Source of the DNA: Mobula hypostoma
Lineage: Eukaryota
Direction of reading: 5' to 3'
DNA length: 64,000 bases
NCBI RefSeq assembly: GCF_963921235.1
Contig: NC_086097.1
Coordinates: 127,784,001-127,848,000 of the forward strand
In this document: positions 20,369 to 40,310 of the stretch, in pieces
How positions within the stretch are numbered: the stretch's first letter is position 1
Layout of the letters: each line of letters begins with the position of its first letter
The notes under the pieces: model-generated
What the model was told of the DNA's origin: nothing
What the model saw: only the letters and a program-made list of their open reading frames with translations
The model's database searches: none
Made by a program: the position numbers and the translations under genes

Positions 20369-22105
20369 TTACTCCCTTGGGGCTGGTATGAACTCTCCTG
20401 GGACGACCAGGGGCGCGCCGTACACCAACTCGGCCGATAAGGTGTGCAGATCCTCCTTGGGCTCCGTGTGGATTCCGAGCAGGACCCAGGGAAGTTCGTC
20501 CACCCAGTTAGGCCCTTCCAGGCGGGCCATGAGAGCCAACTTCAGGTGACGGTGGAAATGCTCCACTAGTCCGTTCGACTGTGGTTGGTAGGCAGTTGTG
20601 TGGTGTAGCTGTGTTCCTAAAAGGTTGGCCATAGCTGACCACAGGCTGGAGGTGAACTGGATGCCTCTGTTGGAGGTAATGTGGGCTGGTACCCCGAAGC
20701 GGGCTACCCAGGTTGCGATCAGTGCTCGGGCGCAGGATTTAGAGGTGGTGTCGGTGAGCGGGACTGCCTCTGGCCATCTGGTGAACCGGTCTATCATAGT
20801 TAGGACGTACCACGCTCTTCGCGACACTGGCAGGGGCCCCACGATATCCACATGGATGTGGTCGAACCTCCGGCGGGTGGGTTCGAACCGCTGCGGTGGA
20901 ACCTTGGTGTGCCGCTGCACCTTGGCCGTTTGGCACTGCATGCACGTTTTGGCCCATTCACTGACCTGTTTACGAAGTCCATGCCACACGAACCTGTTGC
21001 CGACCAGCCGGACGGTTGTCCTGATGGAGGGGTGCGCTAAGTTGTGAATGGATTCGAAAACCCGCCGGCGCCAGGCTGCTGGGACGACGGGGCGGGGTTG
21101 GCCGGTAGCTACGTCACATAGTAGGGTCCTCTCACCTGGGCCTACGGGGAAGTCTTGGAGCTGCAAACCGGAGACTGCAGTCCTGTAACTGGGGATCTCA
21201 GTGTCTGCCTGCTGTGCCTCTGCCAGCGCTGCATAGTCTACCCCCTGGGACAGGGCCTGTATGGTCGGTCTGGAAAGTGTGTCCGCCACGACGTTGTCCT
21301 TTCCCGAGACATGCCAGATGTCCGTCGTGTACTCGGAGATGTAGGACAGATGTCGCTGCTGGTGGGACGACCAGGGGTCGGACACCTTAGTGAATGCAAA
21401 GGTAAGCGGTTTGTGGTCTGTGAACGCGGTGAAGGGCCTACCTTCTAAGAAGTACCTGAAATGCTGGATTGCCAGGTATAGTGCCAATAGCTCCCGGTCG
21501 AAAGCACTGTATTTGAGTTCGGGTGGTCGTAGGTGTTTGCTGAAGAACGCCAGGGGTTGCCAGCGACCCTCGATGAGTTGTTCCAGCACTCCACCGACCG
21601 CTGTGTTGGATGCGTCCACCTTGAGGGCAGTAGGAACGTCCGTTCTGGGGTGCACTAGCATCGCGGCGTTTGCCAAGGCTTCTTTGGTTTTAACGAAAGT
21701 GGCTGTGGCCTCTTTGTCCCAGGTAATGTCCTTGCCTTTACCCGACATCAGGGTGAACAGGGGGCACATGGTTCGGGCTGCTGAGGGGAGGAAATGGTGG
21801 TAGAAATTCACCATACCCACTAATCCCTGCAGGCCTTTGATTGTGTTGGGTCGGGGGAAGTGGCGGACCGCCTCTACTTTGGCGGGCAGCGGGGTTGCCC
21901 CGTCTTTAGTAATCCTGTGGCCCAGGAAGTCGATGGTGTCGAGTCCAAACTGGCATTTGGCTGGGTTGATTGTAAGGCCGAATTCACTCAGGCGGGAGTA
22001 GAGTTGACGGAGGTGGGACAGATGGTCCTGACGACTACTGCTGGCTATGATGATGTTGTCCAAATAGATGAATGCAAAGTCCAGGTCGCGTCCCACTGCA
22101 TCCAT
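20369..22105 (-). pseudogene. Gypsy pol fragment: RT (YLDN, from YLDD), RNase H, integrase
   Basis: [42 protein letters not shown] zinc finger and IHVDIVGP...QSNGLVE. Confidence 0.93.
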
Positions 22106-22675
22106 TAGCCGCTGGAATGTCTGTGCCGCATTCTTTAGGCCGAATGGGGTGATGAGTGCTGTTTTGGGGATGTCGTCCGGATGTACCGGGATTTGATGGT
22201 ATCCCCGGACGAGGTCTACCTTGGAAAAGATCCTTGCTGCGAAGTAAGTTTGCTGCGAAGTCTTGAATGTGCGGCACAGGGTAGCAGTCTGGCGTTGTAG
22301 CCTCGTTCAGTCTGCGCTAGTCACCGCATGGTCTCCAGCTCCCTGTTGTCTTGGGCACCATGTGCAGGGGGGAGGCCCATGGGCTGTCGGACCGTCGTAT
22401 GATCCCTAATTCCTCCGTCTTCTTGAACTCCTCCTTCGCCAGTCAGAGCTTGTCCGGGGGAAGCCTTCGAGCACGGGCGTGGAGGGGTGGTGTCTGGGTC
22501 GGGATGTGGTGCTGTACTCCGTGTCTGGACATGACTGCCGTGAACTGCGGTGTCAGTACTGATGGGAAATCTGCCAGGACCCTGGTGAATTCGTCATTGG
22601 ACAGCGTGATGTCCAGGTGTGGGGCTGGCAACTTTGCTTCACCCAGGGAGAACATTTGAAAAGTCTTGGCATGGA

Positions 22676-23655
22676 CTAATCGCTCCCCTTACAGGTCGAC
22701 CAGCAGGCTGTGGGCTCATAGAAAATCTGCCCCCAGGAATGGTTGGGCCACGGCGGCCAGTGAGAATCCCACATGAACCGGCTGGAGCTGAACTGTAGCC
22801 GCACCGTGCGGGTGCCGTAGGTCTGTATTGTGCTGCCATTTGTGGCCCTCAGGGTGGGTCCCGGTTCTCTGTTGCGGGTGTCGTAACTCGTTGGAGGTAA
22901 GATGCTGATCTCCGCTCTGGTGTCGACCAAAAAACGGTGTCCCGACTGCTTGTCCCAGACGTACAGGAGGCTGTCCTGATGGCCAGCCGCTGTAGCGATC
23001 GGTGGCGGCTGGGCCTTGGCGTTTCCTGGGAATTTGCAGGGTGGTCTACAGCGGCGCTGGTGGTAGAAGCACCATTGTTTGTTGGGCTCCGCTGCCGGGC
23101 CTGGTCTGGTCTGTTGTTGGGCACGCGACTTGGTGATCTGTGCGACGGATGCCCCTCTCTCTTTCCTGGCATTCCACAGCACATCTGCACGGGCCGCCAC
23201 CTCCCGGAGGTTGCTGAAATCTATGTCAGACAGCAGCAGGCATATGTCCTCGGGCAGTTGCTCTAGGAATGTCTGCTCAAACATGAGGCAGGGTTTGTGT
23301 CTTTCAGCCAGGGCCAGCATCTCGTTCATTAATGCCGACGGTGGCCTGTCTCCCAAACCATCCAGGTGCATTAAGCGGCGTGCTCGTTCGCGCCGTGAGA
23401 GTCCGTAAGTCCTTATGAGCAGGGCTTTGAATGCTGTGTATTTGCCGTCCTCCGGGGGTGACGCTATAAACTCCTCAACTTGTGCAGCAGTCTCCTGGTC
23501 GAGGGAGCTCAGCACGTGGTAGTAGCGAGTGGACTCCGAGGTTATCTGCCAAATGTAGAATTGTGCTTCTGCCTGTTCGAACCACAGATGGGGTCGCAGT
23601 GCCCAGAAGCTTGGCAGTTGTAACGAAACTGCGTGAACAGATGCGGCGTCGGTCA
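22676..23655 (-). pseudogene. Gypsy gag-protease
   Basis: VSLQLPSFW...WFEQAEAQF, CHCC-type motif CFYHQRRCRPPC and protease FLVDTRAEIS (catalytic DTG altered). Confidence 0.88.
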
Positions 23656-23696
23656 TCTCTGGCCCAAAGATCGTTTGGGCCGTCGGGATCACCAAT

Positions 23697-23984
23697 TGTA
23701 GCTGGGTGCTACACACAGCGCTAGAATAACCACACGGAGTCGGGGAGTTGGAGTTGCGATAAAAGAGATTGATTCAAACTTCGCGGCCTGCTTTAAAGCC
23801 TTCCCATTCCCGCCCTCCCTGGGCAGGTCTGCTGTGGGGAATGCATAGTCGCAGGCCCTTTCCGCTCGTGGGATTTTCCCCCTGCTGGTGAAGATGGCCT
23901 GCCACCCTTTTGGGGGCCGGCCTCTCTGCCGGCGCGCACTGTTTCGTGAGCCGGTTCGTGTGCACTGGAAAGTGGGTCGCCACA
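23697..23984 (-). repeat. 5' LTR of the Gypsy element
   Basis: Direct repeat of 19680-19967, adjacent to the PBS at 23681-23694. Confidence 0.95.
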
Positions 23985-25332: not shown

Positions 25333-25758
25333 ACTTGATCCAGACTTTGAAATGTAATTTTTTTATCTGTCTTGTTGCATCATAGTTTGCTATCATTATT
25401 TCAATGCACAGGATTGCAAAAAACTAGAAAGAAGTGGACACAGCCTTGCCCATCATGGACACATACTCGCCACCACTGTAAGTATCTACATGAGGCATTT
25501 CATCAAGAAGGTGGCATCTATCATCAAGGATTCCACCATCTGGGCCATGTCCTCTTCTTATTATGACCATCAGCCAGGAGTTGCAGATGCTAGAAGTCTC
25601 ACATCGTCAGGTTGAAAAACAGCTACATCCCTATACCATCAGTTTCTTGATCTGACCTGCACAACTCTAATCCTACCTCAGCAATGGAACAGTATGGCTC
25701 TCAACTTTTCAAAGGACCATAAGATATAGGAGCAGAATTAAGGCATTTGGCTCATTGA

Positions 25759-26107
25759 CGTAAACACGAGGAATTCTGCAGATGCTGGAAATTCAAGCAA
25801 CACACATCAAAGTTGCTGGTGAACGCAGCAGGCCAGGCAGCATCTCTAGGAAGAGGTACAGTCGACATTTCGGGCCGAGACCCTTCGTCAGGACTAACTG
25901 AAAGAAGAGCTAGTAAGAGATTTGAAAGTGGGAGGGGGAGGGGGAGATCCAAAATGATAGGAGAAGACAGGAGGGGGAGGGATGGAGCCAAGAGCTGGAC
26001 AGGTGATTGGCAAAAGGGATACGAGAGGATCATGGGACAGGAGGCCCAGGGAGAAGGAAGGGGGGGGAAACCCAGAGGGTGGTCAAGGGGTATAGTCCGA
26101 GGGAAAG
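25759..26107 (-). mobile_element. Penelope-like pseudo-LTR, inverted, with ~47-nt terminal extension
   Basis: Reverse complement of ~32948-33256 with few mismatches. Contains a hammerhead motif and abuts the TSD at 25745-25758. Confidence 0.9.
25860..25895 (-). ncRNA. Minimal type I hammerhead ribozyme motif (Penelope-associated)
   Basis: Minus strand reads AGTC-CTGACGA-AGGGTCTCGGCCC-GAAA-TGTC-GACT: stem I AGTC/GACT, CUGANGA and GAAA boxes, a stem II hairpin and a very short stem III. Confidence 0.8.
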
Positions 26108-26294
26108 TTCTGCGGATACCACTCGAGAAAGGGGTCTGCACGGGCAGAACAGAATAGAAGATAAGGGTAGCTTAAGTAGAAAATTTAGACGCGGGTGAGA
26201 AGAAACCATAAGGATAGATAGAGAAATAGGTTACAGAAAATAGTATTACCGAGGTGTGAGACGTTAAGAATACCTTAAAAAGGGGAAGAACAAC

Positions 26295-28445
26295 ATGACA
26301 GGGAAAGGAATAGCAGTAGAAATACTGAGTAAAATATTCCCGGTGTGTCAAGGTAAGATCGCGGAAATTTCAGAAAAATGGGAAAAAAGAACCAAAAATT
26401 TGGTCACGAAATGGCCGAAAGAAGGAACATTTGATGTAAGTTTATGTGAGGAAATGGAGGCGCTGATTAAAAATTACAAACCAAGAGATAAATCCAAGAA
26501 AAGAGAGAAAAAAAGAAAACAGCAGATAGAAGTGTTAAAACTCTTTACGATGGAGGGAGAAAGATTGAGAAAGAAAGGAAGAATATCAGTAGCAAGTAAA
26601 GAAGACACTGAGAAACAAGAAAAGCAGTCTGGTAAACCACAGGAGAAACAGAATAAGGAGCCGACTCTATACCCAGACCTGAGAAATGTAGAAACCTCTC
26701 CCCTTTATTACGAGAAGGAGACTCTTAAACAGTGCCCTGTATTATCAGGAGAACTAGAACTGGAGGGAAAGTTTAAATTCTGGGAGACCGAGGAGGAAAG
26801 AAGAAAATATGAGGAGGAGAGAGAGAGGCACTGTGGAAGGAGATGCAGGAAGACAAGAAAAAAGTAGAACGAGAAAGTAAGATAATAAGAGAACGTATCA
26901 AAGAGTTGTGGGAATTGAGACTGAGGAAAAGTCAGGAGGAATTCCTGTTACAGGAACACGACGCTGAACAGGCTAGAAGAGAAGATGATTTATCAGAAGA
27001 GCAAGAGTCAAGTAATGAGTATGAGGGTATAAGAGAGTGTAGACAGGGGATAGAAGAGTTGATCCTTGAAGGGAAAAAAGAGAGAGTGGAAAGGGAGATA
27101 AAAGAAGTGGAGAAAGAGTATAGGAGATTACAGCAGGAATTGGGTTTCCCACTGGGTTTCCAACAACAGTTTGAGGACTTCGCGAGGACCCGAGCAAATG
27201 CTAGCCTGAATCAGAAAGAGAGGACTCTAAGGAGATGTCAAGAGAAAATAGGAAAACAAGGGAGAGGGCAAACCCTGGAGAGATTTGTGTGGTAGCCAGT
27301 AAGAACGAGGTCAGAAGGGGATGAGGAGTCGGGTGAGGAGGAAAATCAGAATACGGGGAGAGAAGGAAAAAAAAGTGATGCCGTTGTTCGTAAAAGGGTC
27401 AGGACAAGTACGGTATGTTCCTTGGGGCTCCCAGGACCTGGAAGGGCTGAAAAACATCCTGCCTAGCTTACATGAAGGAGCAGGGAAGTGGATTAGACCC
27501 TTTGAAGAAGAAACTACGGGATGGTTATTGGCTATGGGAGATTTGAAGGCACTGCTGATAAGGTTGATGGGAACCTCCAAATTAAAAGAGCTGATGGAAA
27601 CGGCTGGACTACTAAATGCGTTCAGCCCAATGACTGACGGGACCAGCTTTGACCAAGTGAGGCAGGGGGTATGGCAGGCCCTCAGGAAGCTTTACCCACC
27701 CAAAGTGGACCCCAGCGCTTTGAAAGGGGATCCGCTGGGGAACACTGAGAATCCAGCAGCCTATGTAGAAAATCAGTTGAAAAGGTGGAGGCTGGAGACT
27801 GAGCAAGAAGTGGAAGGCAACTCGTTTATGACCATACTGTTCTGAACCACCATTTTGGACGCAATGCCTCTGCAAGTTAAATCTAAACTGGAGGAAGTGG
27901 TCGGACTGATGTCAATGAACTCACAAGAACTTAGAGACCACGTACTCCATGCGGTTGAGAAATATCGGAAAGACAAATGGAAGCTGATTGAGCAGCAGGA
28001 AGAGGTGCAAAGAAACCTAATGCAAATGCAGCTTGAAGAACTCAAAAAGAAGGAAAAGGAGAAGGGAAAAAAGATGCTGCCAGTAGCACCCGATTTGAGT
28101 GCAACCGTTGAAATGAATGAAACACCACTGTATGCAGGGACGGGTCGTGCAGTCAGACAGGGGCCAGAAAACCCCATGCCAAAAATAAATGTCTTTGGAG
28201 GAGCATTCCCACGAATGCCCTATCAGGAACAGAGTAAATTTAAACAGCAGCCCAGACAGGACTGGAAATCCCAAGGAGGGGGACAGAGAGGTTATGGACA
28301 AAGAGGGCCAGTGAGGAGACAAGGGGAGAGAGAGATAGCCAGACTGTGCTGGGGGTGTAACCAGCCAGGACACGTGAGAAGAGACTGTCCACTCAGGATA
28401 TGGCCCGTCACATACCAGCAGGGACCGATGAGAAGGGAACCGTAG
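26295..28445 (+). pseudogene. ERV gag
   Basis: WPKEGTFD matrix-like motif, YPDL late-domain motif, YVPW...LPSLHEGAGKWI capsid region and zinc knuckle CWGCNQPGHVRRDC. Interrupted by stops and a frameshift. Confidence 0.88.
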
Positions 28446-28484
28446 GTTAGCCAAGGACCAGCCCCCACAGGCTCAGGTGGACCC

Positions 28485-30030
28485 ATGAACCCCTACGCAA
28501 GATGCTGGGGGTGCCCAGAGAACCCAGGTGGGAAGGGACATTACCCAGTGATAACAAGGGAGGCGCAAGAGGAACCCATTGTTCAGGTTATGTTAGAAGG
28601 GCAGCTGACACCCATGATGATAGACACTGGAGCCACGTATACCTCTGTACAGCCACAGTATGCCCTTCGCCTTCCCATGTCAGGAAAATTTATTAAGACT
28701 GTAGGGTTCTCAGGGAAAACACAGTTAATACAATGTACAGCTCCAGTATGATCAGAGATGGGCAGTAAAAGAATAGTTCTGCCAGTATTAGTGTCCAAAG
28801 GAACCCTGATTAATTTGCTAGGCAGAGATGCACTATTAAAACTAGAATTAAAATTAGAATGCACTAGAAATGGGTTGAGCGTGGAAAGAGCGAATAGTCA
28901 GTTACTAGTGCGGGAAATCAAGAAAACTGATGTTTTCTGGGTAGGCGACATAGAAGATCAGATCTGGGAAACCTGGGAAAAATGGGAAAAGGGCGTGCAG
29001 GCCATATTGCCCAAGGCGGAAGCGCCCAAGTCTGAGTTACATTGCACAGTAATTTTTGACGAGACTGAGTAAAGAGTTAGAGGAGAGATGGCACGAGGGG
29101 ACATGCACCCGGCAGCACCTAAGAGGAGAGGCTATAATAATTGGAAAGCAAGGGGCAGCCCTACAAGTCAGGTGGAATACCTTCTTGGAGATATGGTATA
29201 GAATACCGGAGGCTGTGCCCCACATAACGTTGCTGGTGAATGAAGGATACCAGTCTAAAGACCTAGGTCCCTTAGTAAAGCGCGTTGGAACTGTAATGGT
29301 TTGGAGGAAAATCATGCTGGAGGTATGGGCATCGGGAGACAACAACTACATTAGAATAGTGGTAGATATAAATATGACAGGAACTATAAAGGAGCTCGAA
29401 GTAATTCCTCAGCCGCACATGTCACTATTGGAAAAGGAGAAAAGACAGGGAAAAGATAACAGGCTGGATAGGTTACCATCTATTCTGTGGTTGCAACATG
29501 ACACGGACGTAGGGAGAATACAAACAGCAAGTCCGGTAGAAATAAAACTGAAAAAGGGAGCAGTTCCACCTTGGAGACCACAATGCCCTCTAAGACCAGA
29601 AGCAGAGGAGGGAATAGCGCCCACGATACAGGGGTTGCTCGAAGCAGGTGTACTTAAGAGGATAGATAGTCCATATAATACCCCGCTGCTGCCCATCTTA
29701 AAAGCGGACAAATCCAAATGGAGACTGGTACATGACTTAAGAGCGGTAACTGAGGTAGTGGAGGACCGGCCAGCTGTAGTTCCCAACCCGCATACGCTTT
29801 TGACTAATGTTCCGCCGGAATCAAGCTATTTTTCAGTGACTGATTTGTGCTCTGCTTTCTTCAGCATTCCCCTGGCCGATCAGTGTCAGTATCTATTTGC
29901 ATTTACATACAGAGATAACCAGTATACCCATACTAGAATGCCACAAGGATTTAAGCACCCACCGCAGTTCAAGTAGAAGGACGTTCCACCTGCTACCATC
30001 TCAAGCACTGCACCAGAGCAGTCCTGCAGG
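28485..30030 (+). pseudogene. ERV pol: protease, 2H-phosphoesterase-like domain, RT N-half joined to integrase tail
   Basis: MIDTGATYT...NLLGRD, LHCT and PHITL, SPYNTPLLPI-WRLVHDLRAV-DLCSAFFSIPL-TRMPQGFK, then TAVQVEGRSTCYHLKHC. Same frame as the gag end. Confidence 0.88.
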
Positions 30031-30149
30031 TACAGTCAGGTGTGGAGCTCGAGGTAAGTGGTGATGAGGAATGAATAACAGGGGACAGACAAGAAGAACA
30101 AGAAGTTGTCACTGTACACAGGAGTTTGATCAGACGATAAGGGAAGTTT

Positions 30150-31809
30150 TTGGTTTTGAGAGCAGGTCTGATGACCCTCAGAATGGGGTTGTGGGTAGTA
30201 GTACTCCTTCAGACAGTGAGGATGACTTGGGAGCGACCAGTCTTGCCCCTTGGGATGATACACCCACAAACCCCTGTATGGACTTGGAAACCATTAATTT
30301 GGCTGATATGGCATAGGAATGTTAGGACTCCGCAAACCTTAAAAGAAAGGAGTAAGCGGAGTGCAACAGTTACCTCTTTGCAGTGGCAACAGACACGTAC
30401 TAGCCAGTGGTACCAATGGGCACAATGCACAGCAGGAATGATGGAGAGACAGAATTGTTATCCGTGCTCCAGGGCGAAGCCCGTGCAATACGCAGCCCCC
30501 ATGCCTTATAACTCCTCCACCTGCACGCAGTGGCAAAAGGAGCAGAGGGGGCAGTGTGCACGGCACTGTCCGAGTGTAAAGACTTGCAGCATGGGGATTT
30601 GTAGCGGGACGGATCCTTGTTATCAGAAATGTATTGACAACACCCTATATTGCCCTTATTGGTGTATGCTATCCCAAGTCTCCTCGCAATTCGATCGAAA
30701 TGTGCTCGCCCATAAATGTAATTATAGCAGACCTTGGGCCACTAGTAAAAGAAGTTAGACCCCCGCAGTAGGATAATTGATAATGCAGGATCATTTGAAT
30801 TATGAATGTTTTACATGGACAGGTGCTTTTTCGGTTGGCCACTTTAGGGGTAACTGCGTGCAGACTTGGGATGTAACCCCAGGCCGAAGATACATAGTAG
30901 GTACTCCTCCACCCGAAGGTGTGTTGGATGTCCAGAACATCCCATTAGCGGACACTTGGTGGTTGTGCGGAATGGAGGAAGGCCCGAGATCCACGCTTCC
31001 CCTTAGTTGGGCAGGTACATGTACACGGGCTATGCTGATTCAAGAAGTTGTCGTATCCCCGAAGTACAATTTGACGCTCTGAAGCAGCAGAGGCGAAAAT
31101 ATGAACCTGACCCAACGATCCGAATCGATAGTATAGGACAGCCAAGAGGTATACCTAACGAGTTCAAGGCAAGAAACGAGATTGCTGCTGGCTGGGAAGC
31201 GATTATACCTGTAATAGGGGTTAGCAAAAACGTTGCGTGGATAAACTATATATATTATAATCAACAGAGATTCATTAACTACACCGATGATGCGCTGGAG
31301 GCACTAGGACAACAACTGGCTGCAACTAGTAGAGTGGTGTGGCAGAATAGACAGGTGTTAGACTGGCTGCTGGCAGAAAAAGGAGGAGTTTTGGAGAACA
31401 GTGCTGTACTTTTATACCAAATAACACGAGTCCGGAGGGATCATTTACCAGAGCAATGAACAAATTGAAAAGTCTGAGAGGAGGAGTTAGACAGAATGCA
31501 GGGTTCGGACATCAGTTACTTGACTGGTTAGATAGTAAACTAGGGGGATGGGGAGCATGGTTAACTAAGATAGCGATAACTGTAGGTATTGTATTGGTAA
31601 GCTGTGTGATTGTTTTGTGCTGTTTTCTTCCATGTCTCAAGTCTCTTATAGTGCGGGCCGCAACAAAACGCTTTCCGATGCTCTTGGAAATTGCTGAATC
31701 AAGCCCAGTGGAAAGAGAAATACTGATGATGTATTGTTACAGGTTACACGACATGCAAGATGTACAGGAGGGAAATGATAATGTGGGAGTAGACTGTAAA
31801 GGCTCCTGA
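30150..31809 (+). pseudogene. ERV env (gamma-type TM with immunosuppressive domain)
   Basis: Hydrophobic leader, RSKR, NCYPC, WWLCG, IDSIGQPRGIPNEFKARNEI, ISD QNRQVLDWLLAEKGG, QCCTFIPNNT and a membrane anchor IAITVGIVLVSCVIVLCC. Confidence 0.9.
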
Positions 31810-32014
31810 GTCTTTTTTCCTGTCTCAGACACGAAGGGACAGGCTTTTGGCTCAGTGGCCTAGGAAGGTAGGGAGAGAACACTTCGAGTTCTAAGCACAA
31901 GAAATTATAGTTTGACCCAGATTTGGGAGTAAATTCTGGAGTTTATTTGAGCTTTTGTTTGTGGACTCGTAGTTTCCTCTCTCTGTGAGACCTTATAGAT
32001 CTCAACGGAGGGAT

Positions 32015-32430
32015 TATATTGGAAAATATTGTAGCACTCTGTTTTCTAAGTGTTTATTTTAGTGTGCTCTTATTGCACATCAAGTGTTTATTCAGGTGTT
32101 TATTATGCATTAAGTGTCTGTTATTGAGTGTGTAGGGGATTAGTATGGTATTTCAACTATGTAACCATTGAACGAAACCTGTGTACTTTTGACCTCTTGA
32201 GAAAGAAGAATTTAACCAAGTAGATTGATTTATTAGCTAGAGTAAAACTTACAGTGATCTACTAATGCTGTTAACCCAGAAGGAGGCTTATAAAAAATGC
32301 TGTGTGAGAGAGGCAGGTAGACTTACAGAGGCTAGCCCACTGTCTGTGTCAGTTTTGATTTGCAAATTAAAGTTTAAAATTTCTTGCAGAATCTTCGGCG
32401 TTTCCTTTGTCATTTTGTAAAACCACGACA
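32015..32430 (+). repeat. ERV 3' LTR
   Basis: Follows purine tract AACGGAGGGA. TATAAAAA at ~32289, ATTAAA at ~32366, and ends in ...CACGACA. The left boundary is approximate. Confidence 0.75.
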
Positions 32431-33254
32431 GGCGACACTTCATCTGTGAGTCAGCTGGGGTGATATGCTGCGTCCGGTGCTCCCGATGTGGTCTTCTATA
32501 TATTGGCGACCATTCAGGGCCCCAGATAGTCCTTCCACGTGAGGCGACACTTCACCTGTGAGTCAGCTGGGGTGATATACTGCGTCCAGTGCTCCCGATG
32601 TGGCCTTCTATATATTGACGAGACCCGACGCAGACTGGGAGATCGTTTTGCTGAACACCTACGCTCTGTCCGCCAGAGAAAGCAGAATCTCCCAGTGGCC
32701 ACACATTTTAATTCCACATCCCATTCCCATTCTGATATGTCTATCCACAGCCTGCTCTACTGTAAAGATGAAGCCACACTCAGGTTGGAGGAACAACACC
32801 TTATATTCCGTCTGGGTAGCCTCCAACCTGATGGCATGAACATTGACTTCTCTAACTTCTGCTAATGCCCCACCTCCCCCTCGTACCCCATCTGTTACTT
32901 ATTTATATATACACATTCTTTCTCTCTCTCTCCTTTTTCTCCCTCTGTCCCTCTGACTATACCCCTTGCCCATCCTCTGGGTTTTTTCCCTCCCTCCCCC
33001 TTTTCCTTATCCCTAGGCCTCCTGTCCCATGATCCTCTCATATCCCTTTTGCCAATCATCTGTCCAGATCTTGGCTCCATCCCTCCCCCTCCTGTCTTCT
33101 CCTATCATTTTGGATCTCCCCCTCCCCCTCCCACTTTCAAATCCCTTACTAGCTCTTCTTTCAGTTAGTCCTGATGAAGGGTCTCGGCCCAAAACGTTGA
33201 CTGTACCTCTTCCTAGAGATGCTGCCTGGCCTGCTGCGTTCACCAGCAACTTTG
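32431..33254 (+). mobile_element. Penelope-like element 3' part: GIY-YIG endonuclease and pseudo-LTR
   Basis: FTCESAGVIYCVQCSRCGLLYIDETRRRLGDRFAEH...EEQHLIFRLGSLQPDGMN, a pyrimidine-rich UTR and a hammerhead. TSD at 33255-33268. Confidence 0.93.
33167..33202 (+). ncRNA. Minimal hammerhead ribozyme motif, core-mutated copy
   Basis: AGTC-CTGATGA-AGGGTCTCGGCCC-AAAA-CGTT-GACT. The GAAA box has become AAAA. Confidence 0.7.
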
Positions 33255-33519
33255 ATTTGGCTCATTGAGTCTGCTCTGCCATTTCGTCTTGGCTGACCTA
33301 TTTTATCCTCTCAGCCCCAGACTCCAGTTTTCTCCCCCAACCCCCTTTTCATATTCCTTCATGCTCTGACCAGTCAAGAATCTATCAACCGCCGCCTTAA
33401 GAATACATAAAGACTTGGCCTCCACAGCTGCCTGTGGAGGTCAAATTCCACAGATTCACCACTCTTCAACTACCATGAACTTATTTCCAATGAAACTGGC
33501 CTCAGGCTCCAAACTGGGT

Positions 33520-34128
33520 ACAGATGTCGAGTATAACTAATGTTTCGATAATAAACTCTGCCATAAGGAAGTTCAAGTCACAGCTTATGCAGGTCGAAGA
33601 TGACCTGGGACTCAGGTCAGCTGGTGTCTACTGGATTCCCTGTGAATGTGGAACAGCGAATATTGGCCAGACAGGATGCATGGTGGAAACCCGCATTAAG
33701 GAGCACAGGAGGTTGCCTGGAGAAATCGGCAGTAGCGGAACACTGCATTAGCGAAAGCTTTAGCATTGACTTCAATGGCACTGAACTACTGTGCCGTGCC
33801 AATGGCTTTTGTATCCACTTGGTTACGAAAGCCATTTAAATAAACTAGAGGAAAAGAATTTAAACAAAGGTGAAGGCCTCACTCTAAGTAAAAAAGTGGA
33901 ATTCAGTTGTAAACAAAGTGGGAGAGTGGAAACCTGATTGGATGAGGACTAAACAATCAGGAGGGATGGACTACGGGGCTATAAATGCCACTGGACTAGA
34001 CATGCCCACGCATTATCCCTGAAGAAGATGGCAGAGTCTATCATTGAAATGTCAGTTATAATCGATATCTGTACCCGGCTAGAAGCCCGAGAAGAGTTTA
34101 TTCATCATATATGCTGGAAAAACACTCG
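33520..34128 (+). mobile_element. Second Penelope-like family, GIY-YIG 3' fragment
   Basis: AGVYWIPCECGTANIGQTG..VETRIKEH and EKSAVAEH. Hammerhead-like CTGAAGA..stem..GAAATGTC at 34019-34053. Confidence 0.85.
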
Positions 34129-37444: not shown

Positions 37445-37800
37445 AACTGTCTGTCATTCTTTGGTGTTTGTCTTGTCTTGTCCTCGCCTCTGTGGGGTAA
37501 GCCAGGCTGTTTTGCCATTGCCCTGCAGGGGGGGAGGGGATCTGTCTTGTCTTATCCTCGCCTCCATGGGGTCTGTCAGGCCGTCTTGCCATTGTCCCAC
37601 AGGGGGTTCATGTCTTGTCTTGTCTTATCCTTGCCTCTGTGGGGTAAGTCAGGCCATCTTGCTGTTGCCCTGCGGGGGGGTCATGTCTTGTCTTGTCTTG
37701 TCCTCGCCTCCGTGGGGGTAAGTCATCTTGCCGTTGCCCTGCTGGGGGACATGTCTTGTCATTGCCTCTGTTGGGTAAGTCTAGCTGTCCTGCCGTTATC
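37445..37800. repeat. Tandem repeat, ~60-75-bp unit, ~5 copies
   Basis: Recurrent TGTCTTGTCTTGTCCTCGCCTC..TGGGGTAAG..TTGCC.TTGCCCTGC.GGGGG. Confidence 0.85.
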
Positions 37801-37904
37801 CAACAGGTGGACCTGTCCCACCTTGGTGTGGAGAAGTTGAGTCCCGGCTTGTCTAAGGATAAGTCCCAGCTCTATGTTGATGTTTGGTTCCCAGTCTGTC
37901 TCTG

Positions 37905-38370
37905 AGCTCCAAGAACCCCAACCTTGAGGATCCCTCAGCCAAGCTCCAAGAACCCCAGCCTCGAGGATCCCTCAGCCAAGCTCCAAGAACCCCAGCCTCG
38001 AGGATCCCACAGCCAAGCTCCAAGAACCTCAGCCTCGAGGATCTCGCAGCCAAGCTCAAGATCCAAGAATCCAAGCCTCGAGGATCCCACAGCCAAGCTC
38101 AAGACCCAAGAACCCAAGCCTCGAGGATCCCACAACCAAGCTCAAGACCCAAGAACCCAAGCCTCGTGGATCCCAAACCAAGCTCAAGACCTAAGACCCC
38201 AAGCCTCGAGGATCCCAAACCAAGCTCGACCCAAGACCCCAAGCCTCGAGGATCCCAAACCAAGCTCAAGACCCCAAGCCTCCAGGATCCCAAACCAAGC
38301 TCAAGACCCAAGACCCCAAACCTCGAGGATCCCAAGCCAAGCTCAAGACCCAAGACCCCAGCCTCAAGCC
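37905..38370. repeat. Minisatellite, ~34-41-bp unit, about a dozen copies
   Basis: Recurrent CAAGCTC(C)AAGA(CCCAAGA)ACCCCAGCCTCGAGGATCCC. Confidence 0.9.
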
Positions 38371-40310
38371 ATGTCATGTCCCTGCCTGGTTCTGGGGTCC
38401 GAGCCCAAGGCAGGACGCAGGTTCTGGGTCCTTGTCCAGTCTCGGGCTCAGAGTACGGGCCTTATCTTTTATCCAAGCTCAGGCTTCTAGACCCCAGCCA
38501 CGTCCTGTCCTGAAGCCATAGCATGTCCTTGCCTGGTTCCGGTGTCCAAGCCTGAGGCAAGACCCAGGTTCTGGGTCCTTGTCCAGTCTCAGGCTCAGAG
38601 TCCAAGCCTTGTCTCCTAGTCCATGGTTCCTAGTCCTGGTCCCGCTTTCCCTAGCCCAAGTCTGCATTCTTGTCCCTGCTCCTGGTCTGAATCCTGTCAT
38701 GTTCCTACTCTAGTCAAGTCCTGTTCCTTGTACTTCAGTGTCTGTGTCTTGCACTTGGGTCCGTTCCCAGCACCTATTGTGACATTTATGTATTTCTTTA
38801 ATCTGCTGTTTAGCTATAAAGGTTTTAATTTGATTAGCCAATAATTTACCTGTTTTGTCTCCATGAATATAAAATTGACTCTTATCTTTGAGGAGTTGAG
38901 TTTCAATTGGATAAGTTAAAAGGAGATCATATTTAGTTTTAATTTCAACACACCTTTTATATAAAGCAGGATCTGGAACCAAGGCATACTGTTGGTCTAA
39001 TTTTTTCAACTGCTTGGGTAAATCACTTTTCTCTTTATCAGCTTTTTTCTTAATACTTGCAGTATAAGAAATAATTTGTCCTCTAGTATATGCCTTAAAG
39101 GCATCCCATCTGATAAGGCTAGAAGTCTCCTCTAACATATTCTCTTCAAAAAAAAAGAGTAATTTGTCCCTCCATAAACTTTAAAAAATCTTTATCAGAT
39201 AACAAAGTTAGATTAAAATGCCAAAACCTGTTTGTTTGAAGAAGGCCAGGGAGATTTAAAGATAAGAGCACAGGAGCATGATCTGAGACAACAATCTCTT
39301 TATATTCACAGGATCAAACTAGTGGAATCATTTGGCTATAATAAAAAAGTAATAAATCTTGGAATTTGTATGATGGACATGAGAGAAAAACAAATATTCC
39401 CTGTCTACTGGATAAAAAAATGCCAAACATCAACAATACTACATTTCATTAGAAAAGATTTAATAAACACAGCTGATTTATTTGGTATCACTAGTTTAGA
39501 AGATGAATGATCTAAAGCTGGATCTAAACAACTATTAAAATCTCCCATCACCAATGAGTACAGACTCAGATCTGGCAAACATGAAAAAAATGCTCAAAGA
39601 AGACTGGGTCGTCTATATTCGGAGCATACACATTGGCAAATACCATTAATTTGTTATCTGGCTTCCCTGATACTATAACAAAAAGCCTATTAGTATCAGA
39701 AATCACTTCGTTGAACAAAGGAAGCTTTATTATCTATAAGGATCGAAACACCTCTGGCTTTGGACTGAAACGAAGAATGGAAATGAGATTCTTTCCATCA
39801 ATTAAAAAGGCGTGAATTGTCACATTTACGTACATGAGTTTCTTGAAGAAAAACAATTGGTACCTTAATTTTTTTTAATATAGGCAAAAATTATATTTCT
39901 TTTCACAGGGAGATTTAGCCCTTTCACGTTAAAACTAAATAAATTAATACTTTGATCCATTTTAAAACTGTTTATAAGAAAAGTTAAAGTAGCAATCAGA
40001 AAAATATAAATTAAACCCAAATAATAAACCTTGAGATATAATCGCTAAGCAACAAAGTTGACTAAATTTCCAAATCAGCTTCAAGAAAAAGAACTCCCCA
40101 TCCCCCTCCCTCCTCCCAAAGAGAGAAAATCAACCAAAAGGCAGCCGCGCCTACCCCCACTAATATCATCTCCCCAGAAAAGCCTGCTGCAACTGCTCCA
40201 AAGAATTCAAGGTTGATTACTGTTCCAACCAAGACAAAGCAAAATGCAGTAAAAGATAAGCTTATGCAGTTTTACCAAACAAAAGAAGCAATTATTCATA
40301 CTGAAAAATA

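Follow-up and report, generated by a model that had tools for sequence, protein, structure and literature searches.

Endonuclease-bearing (EN+) Penelope-like elements insert with an inverted, 5'-truncated copy and an optional tail (PMC8557442; PMC11167929). In the rotifer Adineta vaga, an intron-containing NRPS gene and non-coding DNA have been described between Penelope pseudo-LTRs (pLTRs) with a target-site duplication (TSD) (PMC3846280). L1-made HERV-W processed pseudogenes start at R-U5 and terminate at R, where poly(A) follows (PMC5016936). ASLV and HIV are known to integrate by a single end, the joins then being made by the host (PMC5041404). Chlamydomonas Penelope-like elements were considered as a cause of large duplications and set aside, as PMC9977147 names Dualen LINEs instead.

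The locus described here lies in the window, the whole 64,000-nucleotide stretch of Mobula hypostoma contig NC_086097.1 that was analyzed. With EN+ Penelope-like insertions it shares head-to-head pLTR arms, a 40-45-base tail at one end, a TSD, and a GIY-YIG domain C-terminal to the reverse transcriptase (RT), and it differs in the 6.3 kb of provirus held between the arms; the priming data (PMC11167929) come from a Poseidon element and are extrapolated here. Unrelated multi-kb DNA framed by pLTRs and a TSD is common to this locus and to Penelope-mediated mobilization in Adineta vaga, where, in the part of PMC3846280 consulted, the cargo lies between two direct pLTRs plus an inverted one and an empty allele was shown, whereas here no upstream direct pLTR and no empty allele were seen, and the inner DNA is a mobile element with its own integrase. 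An endogenous retrovirus (ERV) with a long TSD that no retroviral integrase would make is also shared with HERV-W pseudogenes (PMC5016936), but the present unit keeps U5 to the terminal CA, lacks poly(A), and has Penelope arms. Aberrant one-ended integration of ASLV and HIV-1 likewise leaves one exact integrase end and another that loses viral and host DNA, although the cases in the excerpted PMC5041404 involve mutated ends, drugs or mutant integrase in cell culture rather than germ-line ERVs. In the literature searched, no report was found of integrase-free provirus movement by a Penelope-like element; supplementary copy-level annotations could bear on novelty.

The favored explanation, which has close to an even chance of being correct, is that a retrovirus was integrated by its own integrase into a two-armed Penelope-like insertion and that its front end was lost there or through one-ended integration. 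That the Penelope machinery copied the ERV in is almost equally probable.

A two-armed Penelope-like frame with a 14-bp target duplication

In its outer frame the unit is a native Penelope-like insertion with two arms, bracketed by a target duplication of 14 bp. The word ATTTGGCTCATTGA stands at 25745-25758 and again at 33255-33268, alike at 14/14 positions and absent elsewhere in the window on either strand; over approximately 10 boundary positions, such a duplication has a chance probability of 4e-8. The target is the 3-prime tip of an old CR1-type LINE repeat on the reverse strand, split into a left part (25715-25744) and a right part (33269-33465). When the flanks are joined, the old repeat is contiguous across the empty site, as expected for a whole EN+ Penelope-like insertion, and the joined site is spanned by 18 of 25 BLAST rows, some of which are the same locus fetched twice. 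Two of the spanning rows (L077 and L209) continue into LINE-type RT coding sequence, the translation being judged by eye, which supports the description of the target as a CR1-type 3-prime end. The preliminary description was therefore correct in stating that one 14-bp direct repeat brackets the whole unit and that removal of the latter restores a contiguous CR1 3' end.

Within this frame, an inverted arm on the reverse strand (25759-26104), consisting of a pLTR whose full tail faces outward, is an inverted copy of the pLTR of the forward arm (91.7% identity with gaps over 315 columns). The forward arm (32510-33254) comprises a GIY-YIG coding end (32530-32865) and a pLTR with a short end. The 40-45-base tail is present on the left arm and missing on the right, the same asymmetry as in native insertions, so that the arms, the inverted 5'-truncated copy and the one-ended tail together have the form of an EN+ Penelope-like insertion; 17 other cases show this two-arm plan to be native to the family. 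Family copies match RVT_1 (E 0.001) and GIY-YIG (E 0.0009), and the window arm matches GIY-YIG (E 0.013), all below Pfam cut-offs; the motif order is RT-linker-EN, with the GIY-YIG endonuclease C-terminal. The family ORF carries a CX4CXXC linker, absent from Penelope and Poseidon according to PMC8557442, and the family is therefore Neptune-like. Core-like words of a hammerhead were seen by eye in the pLTR near 25866-25889, but minimum-free-energy folds were not hammerheads (z -0.4, -0.8) and Rfam gave no match.

The forward arm is preceded by a feature that had escaped notice when a forward GIY-YIG region and pLTR were correctly placed after the ERV. A piece of about 80 bp from the Penelope GIY-YIG region, adjoining the LTR (32431-32509, forward), is a second, partial copy of 32543-32621 (74/79 alike), so that just past the LTR the Penelope sequence jumps back by 113 bases. 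A Penelope master already carrying this back-jump was rejected as its origin, since the back-jump junction is unique in the assembly. The idea that the left arm is younger than the right was also dropped: the difference is not significant, and native short-end arms are likewise slightly more diverged (81/4535 against 134/6187, from 9 of 13 pairs, four being dropped as duplicates or unmatched).

The enclosed provirus and its joins

The ERV body, a dead copy of approximately 6.3 kb, is predicted from its sequence to be class I (gamma/epsilon-like), given its gag-pro-pol-env order, MLV-like RT and TLV-type env; the domains found are a zinc knuckle, an aspartyl protease, an RT nearest to that of MLV (E 1e-30) and TLV_coat. 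All parts lie on the forward strand: a leader remnant (26103-26294); gag, interrupted by stops and frameshifts, with the zinc knuckle near its end (26295-28445); protease and the first part of RT, broken (28446-29955); env, split over several frames, with its TLV_coat match below cut-off (30141-31809); and, behind a purine tract, a complete 3' LTR (32017-32430) with a TATA-like word at 32288, ATTAAA at 32366 and a CA end. Between RT and env, approximately 2.5 kb of pol is missing. This deletion had been placed at around 29958; it is real, and its join is now refined to 29956-29966, one copy of an 11-bp direct repeat, with 2,497-2,536 bases lost between repeats alike at 10/11 positions. Splicing was discarded as its origin, the ends not being GT-AG.

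At the 5' side, the ERV had been described as starting without LTR or PBS, which holds: 912-944 bases of provirus are gone, corresponding to the LTR, the PBS and about 480 bases of leader. The 3' end at 32430 also stands, while the 5' boundary had to be moved, as the ERV match begins at 26103 rather than 26108 and the match of the inverted pLTR stops at 26104 rather than 26107. The resulting arm-ERV join (26103-26107; 2 exact shared bases, 4/5 alike) sits directly after a leader unit of about 65 bp whose copy number varies among relatives.

The 3' LTR ends at the same CA as in relatives, and the four bases found there between LTR and PBS are absent. The LTR continues for 64 bases beyond the ATTAAA poly(A) signal to the CA, and U5 is therefore presumed present; it is not followed by poly(A), so that the R end with poly(A) and without U5 of a HERV-W-type LINE-made pseudogene is not seen, and the exact CA end together with U5 excludes plain ERV mRNA as template. 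Of the features of a canonical provirus, the unit retains the exact U5 CA end, and two LTRs, a PBS and the 4-bp duplication that is the norm of the family are lacking.

Such an arrangement could in principle be a chimera, with an ERV repeat and a Penelope repeat falsely joined during assembly, a possibility to which we assign a very low probability. No contig bridges 26103-26107 in four public runs from two samples, with contigs placed on 26045-26170. However, a chimera would not yield a LINE tail that is contiguous across a perfectly matching 14-bp TSD, nor the tail/short-end asymmetry, the exact CA end and the junction microhomologies, and the locus lies mid-way in a 256-Mb contig. Furthermore, contigs lose rare variants and high-copy repeat links, and the missing bridge is therefore no evidence for absence, polymorphism or misassembly. 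No public run contained as many as half of the words sampled (0.40 and 0.35 at best), and alignment of the four contig sets placed on the unit was swamped by repeats; three flank contigs of organism A showed 0 differences (over 179, 181 and 255 bases), while the flanks of organism B were about 2.5-3% different.

Probable integration in place and possible copying by the Penelope machinery

In the favored explanation, Penelope cDNA synthesis would have started from both nicked target strands, at the tail end on one strand and 40-45 bases further in on the other, with a single back-jump made in the right arm during Penelope insertion, and integrase would have joined the U5 end of the virus into the duplicated GIY-YIG piece. 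A microhomology-joined loss, occurring either after integration or during one-ended integration, would have removed the 5' LTR, the PBS, 480 bases of leader and the 4-bp proviral duplication, and would also have taken the Penelope DNA that separated the provirus from the left arm. As for the pol deletion, it may be older (a slip of retroviral RT between the 11-bp repeats) or later. The integration step is favored by two precedents: an older Penelope-like copy whose GIY-YIG region contains a two-LTR provirus in the same orientation (L260/L275; 1/37 proviral 3' ends), and a solo LTR with the 4-bp duplication typical of the ERV family inside a young Penelope-like copy (L184; 1/29 LTR loci). The loss step has a partial precedent in the 5' LTR missing from 2/29 close relatives, with no Penelope adjoining (the other 27/29 keep LTR and PBS), and in frequent internal deletions (ten recorded); the two relatives retain their own 4-bp duplication, and are therefore not boundary-crossing deletions. 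Other candidate parallels were rejected as Penelope insertions into ERVs, namely L024 and L049, where Penelope lies beside a 5' LTR, and a pair of duplicated copies (C82) with a two-arm insertion within env.

Integration in place is weakened by the requirement that the provirus land within 80 bases of the only back-jump, comparable mid-arm jumps amounting to 1 in 107 young pieces (62,854 bases), and that the loss clear every stretch of Penelope DNA separating the provirus from the left arm, yet leave the TSD intact. In addition, the 2-bp join resembles native arm-arm joins, 8/17 of which are within 3 bases, more than it does the 11-bp pol join. The main rival, clearly short of an even chance, is the interpretation of the preliminary description, in which a provirus that had integrated into a Penelope copy elsewhere in the genome was copied by Penelope into the present site. 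An LTR-driven read-through RNA (or DNA) would have been copied by Penelope RT primed on its own pLTR, with synthesis of at least 6.3 kb, a stop in the leader, and joining to the left arm. The ERV has the orientation of the short-end arm, the left arm meets it directly with a native-type 2-bp overlap, and a source-type locus exists in kind (L260/L275). A two-template variant, in which Penelope RT begins on an ordinary Penelope RNA and jumps to a point 80 bases beyond the LTR, accounts for the back-jump beside the LTR and for extra changes in the re-copied piece and the ERV. Outside this locus, host DNA between pLTRs with a TSD in Adineta vaga (PMC3846280) and internal priming on both strands (PMC11167929) offer precedents, as does a 13.1-kb block in the same genome (G000:C1:95509192-95522296) with two arms and a 14-bp TSD. 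The inner DNA of this block has 95-98% paralogs at five other C1 places; in the 13 paralogous stretches examined, the TSD word of the block does not occur.

A copied unit would be expected to have a source or a sibling sharing its cargo-Penelope junction, and none was found in the assembly, not even a shorter sibling, whereas the 13.1-kb block has five paralogs. The preliminary description had proposed looking for the LTR-Penelope and pol-deletion junctions at other loci; each matched only itself (for the former, the DNA search agreed with the pattern search), as did the back-jump junction. The left arm-ERV junction occurred in 0/39 other scored places, and the upstream Penelope-LTR junction expected of a source provirus was not found (5 matches, 2 of them in the control and 0 with an LTR). 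The interpretation of the preliminary description thus gained no direct support from these searches. Pattern searches were exhaustive, and DNA searches scored 40 of 175-2951 candidates each; for a source within the 200 contigs searched, the power of the main probe is approximately 84%, as gauged on natural pairings of 41 LTR ends with 27 Penelope copies. In C82, whose LTR is the closest relative, the 3' flank is unrelated. A cDNA of at least 7.1 kb would be needed, and the longest native arm is about 2.8 kb. Cargo is also rare in native insertions: foreign DNA of more than 70 bases was present in 0/17 TSD-bounded two-arm insertions, the inner 526 bases of one (L059) being a CT-tract expansion, and in 0/13 unresolved arms each followed for 10 kb. 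The absence of a second copy of the four internal junctions and of an upstream source junction, together with the rarity of cargo, favors integration in place.

Another alternative without a genomic source, considered improbable, is that free viral cDNA was captured during Penelope insertion and patched between two nascent arms after the first back-jump. The substrate could be linear DNA whose CA end had been trimmed by integrase. It could also be a minus strand whose synthesis stalled in the leader; under the scheme of retroviral replication, such a strand has one full LTR and no PBS. Capture would cover the single LTR, the missing PBS, the lack of a source and the equal CpG age, and would fit the position beside re-copied Penelope DNA, since 6/17 native junctions hold re-copied Penelope fills of 17-105 bases; the ERV and Penelope-like families were also active in the same period. 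Native fills, however, are all short and, where traceable, Penelope-derived; with the four LTR-PBS bases absent, an untrimmed end would require a cut precisely at the CA; and two events must coincide in one germ cell. The overall statement that Penelope RT jumped from its own RNA onto the read-through RNA or DNA of a provirus sitting in another Penelope copy and wrote more than 6 kb from gag to LTR or, less likely, that free cDNA was patched in, has somewhat under an even chance.

Relative age and significance

CpG decay is equal in the ERV (35/130) and the arms (7/25), which favors integration in place. Private non-CpG changes amount to 102/4739 in the ERV (2.15%, or about 1.5-1.85% when calibrated against six LTR pairs), dated with one segment skipped (30470-30969; 7 relatives), to 6/823 in the arms, or 7/786 to 10/806 in a second scoring, and to 3/64 in the re-copied piece; the difference between ERV and arms has P 0.007-0.20 depending on calibration. 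The non-CpG clock leans toward an ERV at least as old as the arms, which would fit copying by Penelope and tends, without deciding, against integration in place, a route that requires an ERV no older than the arms.

If the favored explanation holds, the locus is an ordinary nested insertion with later loss, and warns that a long TSD and a single LTR are no proof of transduction. If instead the provirus was copied in, Penelope-like elements would, like L1, be host elements that relocate retroviral gag/env DNA, a new route for spreading viral DNA by which a provirus moved without its own integrase in a vertebrate germ line. The signature would differ from that of L1 in the U5 kept, the lack of poly(A) and the inverted arm. 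The locus would also be an example of template jumping and of 7-kb processivity in an enzyme class whose mechanism is barely known. Under either reading the unit is one dead copy, with no function indicated. Elsewhere in the window, ARAGORN returned a single prediction, in a tandem repeat outside the unit.

A native Penelope-like frame around a retrovirus

The insertion at 25745-33268 of the window, which spans G000:C1:127784001-127848000, is bracketed by a 14-bp direct repeat whose copies (at 25745 and 33255) match exactly and recur nowhere else in the window. Joining the flanks without the unit yields an old repeat, the joined site being spanned by 18 of 25 BLAST rows (some of which represent the same locus twice), and at two loci this target repeat continues into a LINE-type reverse transcriptase (RT); both the duplication and the contiguous repeat reported in the preliminary description are thus upheld. 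Its layout also stands with regard to the inverted pseudo-LTR arm (25759-26104), the endogenous retrovirus (ERV) lacking its front end (26103-32430) and the forward Penelope arm (32510-33254), but the ERV starts at 26103 rather than 26108, and an 80-bp Penelope piece (32431-32509) takes the place of the clean join between LTR and arm. The anatomy of the unit is confirmed.

The outer frame is a native Penelope-like insertion. The two-arm plan, with exact duplications of 9-18 bases, occurs in 17 cases among 207 loci of this genome, and PMC8557442 describes Penelope-like insertions with an inverted truncated copy and a 30-40-base tail at one end; the inverted cap is therefore, as the preliminary description stated, a normal feature. 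Measured against one natural Penelope-like copy as a ruler, the left arm ends at approximately position 1588, with a tail, and the right arm at approximately 1539, without one. The family codes for RT, a CX4CXXC linker and GIY-YIG, which makes it Neptune-like by the criterion in PMC8557442; a hammerhead was looked for in the family and not confirmed. For a Poseidon element, PMC11167929 shows in vitro cutting and extension on both strands and two internal start sites of reverse transcription, which delimit the tail.

Structure and age of the retrovirus

The domains of the ERV, and their order, match those of a class I retrovirus, every gene being broken. Its relatives are 91-96% alike, 27 of the 29 close ones keep the 5' LTR and primer-binding site (PBS), and family integrations produce 4-bp duplications. 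The window's copy lacks 912-944 front bases, and a further ~2.5 kb is missing from pol, where 11-bp repeats flank the gap. Its truncation point is the 3' edge of a ~65-bp leader unit, after an A-run; relatives L099-L125 carry one to four copies of this unit in tandem, just upstream of the point equivalent to 26103. A gag deletion of ~500 bases (26816-27322) is common to many proviruses (L045, L048, L050, L053, L137, L139, L202, L204), so that replication spread deleted forms of this ERV. At another locus (L032/L033, G000:C5:94724053-94733472), a second PBS and leader follow the 3' LTR, forming tandem proviruses with a common LTR.

The ERV and Penelope-like families are contemporaneous, with a terminal divergence of about 1-4%, and CpG decay stands at 35/130 in the ERV and 7/25 in the arms. 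Private non-CpG changes number 102/4739 in the ERV, 6/823 in the arms (7/786 and 10/806 with other comparator sets) and 3/64 in the 80-bp piece. In six two-LTR relatives residence is overestimated from internal changes by a mean of 0.3 points (-0.25 to +1.07); with this calibration the ERV comes to about 1.5-1.85%, against 0.7-1.2% for the arms, and equal age has P = 0.007 to 0.20 (using 6/823). The ERV comes out no younger than the arms, and this pattern leans slightly towards copying of the provirus by Penelope RT, while deciding nothing.

Integration in place or copying by Penelope

The mechanism is close to a tie between these two routes, the odds being judgements on rough base rates and not computed posteriors. 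At nearly even chances, we prefer an origin in which a provirus would have integrated in place, inside the Penelope-like insertion, and then lost its front end, because this genome offers a counterpart for every step and because a shared junction elsewhere, the sole positive sign of transduction, is missing. The 3' LTR stops at the family-standard terminal CA, 64 bases past the poly(A) signal, and its template was therefore DNA or read-through RNA; for the right junction the simplest reading is that integrase made it, either here or at a source.

Among 37 proviral 3' ends, one lies in Penelope-like DNA, namely a two-LTR provirus in the same orientation within the GIY-YIG part of an older Penelope-like copy (L260/L275, G000:C18:153903052-153915850), which is a natural source-type locus; one of 29 LTR loci is a solo LTR in a young Penelope-like copy (L184, G000:C5:79008550-79008998), with a 4-bp duplication. 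In 2 of 29 relatives the 5' LTR is missing and no Penelope sequence adjoins (L137 and L138, G000:C91:48856565-48861411; L139-L141, G000:C45:~97777350-97789678). Both retain the 4-bp duplication and start at the PBS, the 5' LTR being gone almost exactly; in one, 3 LTR bases are left, joined via a 3-base repeat. They are either neat LTR deletions or integrated one-LTR cDNA. For the unit itself, capture of free viral cDNA is improbable.

Copying by Penelope, best in a two-template form, is a somewhat less probable but serious contender, since it accounts more economically for the orientation, the age pattern and the back-jump, a 113-base step back in Penelope sequence 80 bases from the LTR. So near the LTR, the back-jump is a coincidence under both in-place integration and single-template copying, whereas it is expected if RT changed template there; among young copies, totalling 62,854 bases, a single native back-jump in mid-arm (L062) has a long piece upstream of it. 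The 17 native arm-arm joins comprise 8 within 3 bases, 6 with 17-105-base fills, one 6-base overlap and 2 complex cases; the arm/ERV join has 2 exact bases in common.

Such copying requires, however, a 7-kb cDNA and a vanished source. In exhaustive pattern searches of the assembly (3.48 Gb, 200 contigs), the LTR/Penelope and back-jump junctions (2 mismatches allowed) and the pol-deletion join (3 mismatches) each matched the window itself only, so that neither the LTR/Penelope junction proposed earlier as a sign of transduction nor the pol join recurs at other loci; the LTR/Penelope probe has a power of 0.84 on natural variation, and an unfixed or unassembled source would escape it. For the upstream junction expected of a source provirus there were 5 matches, a number at chance level, with no LTR in any of them; DNA searches, with 40 candidates scored each, spanned no junction at any other place. 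Misassembly of the unit is very improbable. In public contig sets from two samples nothing bridges the arm/ERV join, a result without weight for the state of the site, as contigs lose connections through high-copy repeats. The closest LTR relative is a duplicated provirus on C82, with an unrelated 3' flank. This pair (12.296-12.304 and 12.376-12.386 Mb; L201, L202, L266) is an inverted duplicate of one provirus, and both copies bear the same two-arm Penelope insertion in env.

Cargo in Penelope-like two-arm insertions exists. A two-arm block of 13.1 kb (G000:C1:95509192-95522296), flanked by a 14-bp duplication, encloses inner DNA that has five paralogs of 95-98% on C1 (at about 93.97, 97.11, 98.03, 98.10 and 98.11 Mb). 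The block belongs to a group of clustered, rearranged paralogous cassettes, where copying may have run in either direction; a 2.7-kb insert with a short tandem tail at its end interrupts the left arm. Foreign cargo above 70 bases is absent from the 17 native two-arm insertions, a count from which long cargo is censored because these were viewed mostly as 3-kb loci, and from 13 unresolved arms traced for 10 kb. PMC3846280 offers a cargo precedent in a rotifer. The closest known cases are host DNA framed by pseudo-LTRs in Adineta and HERV-W copies made by L1, and the literature sampled in part yielded no report in which a Penelope-like element had moved a provirus.

Neighbouring features

On the reverse strand, a Gypsy-like element recognized by motifs only (20369-23773) contains an open frame of 645 aa, predicted to be pol, and a putative gag-like frame of 365 aa. 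To the right of the unit lies a second, different GIY-YIG-like fragment (33567-33900, forward strand) with no Pfam match, and two tandem arrays, with repeats of 73-74 and 35-43 bases, occupy 37454-38614.
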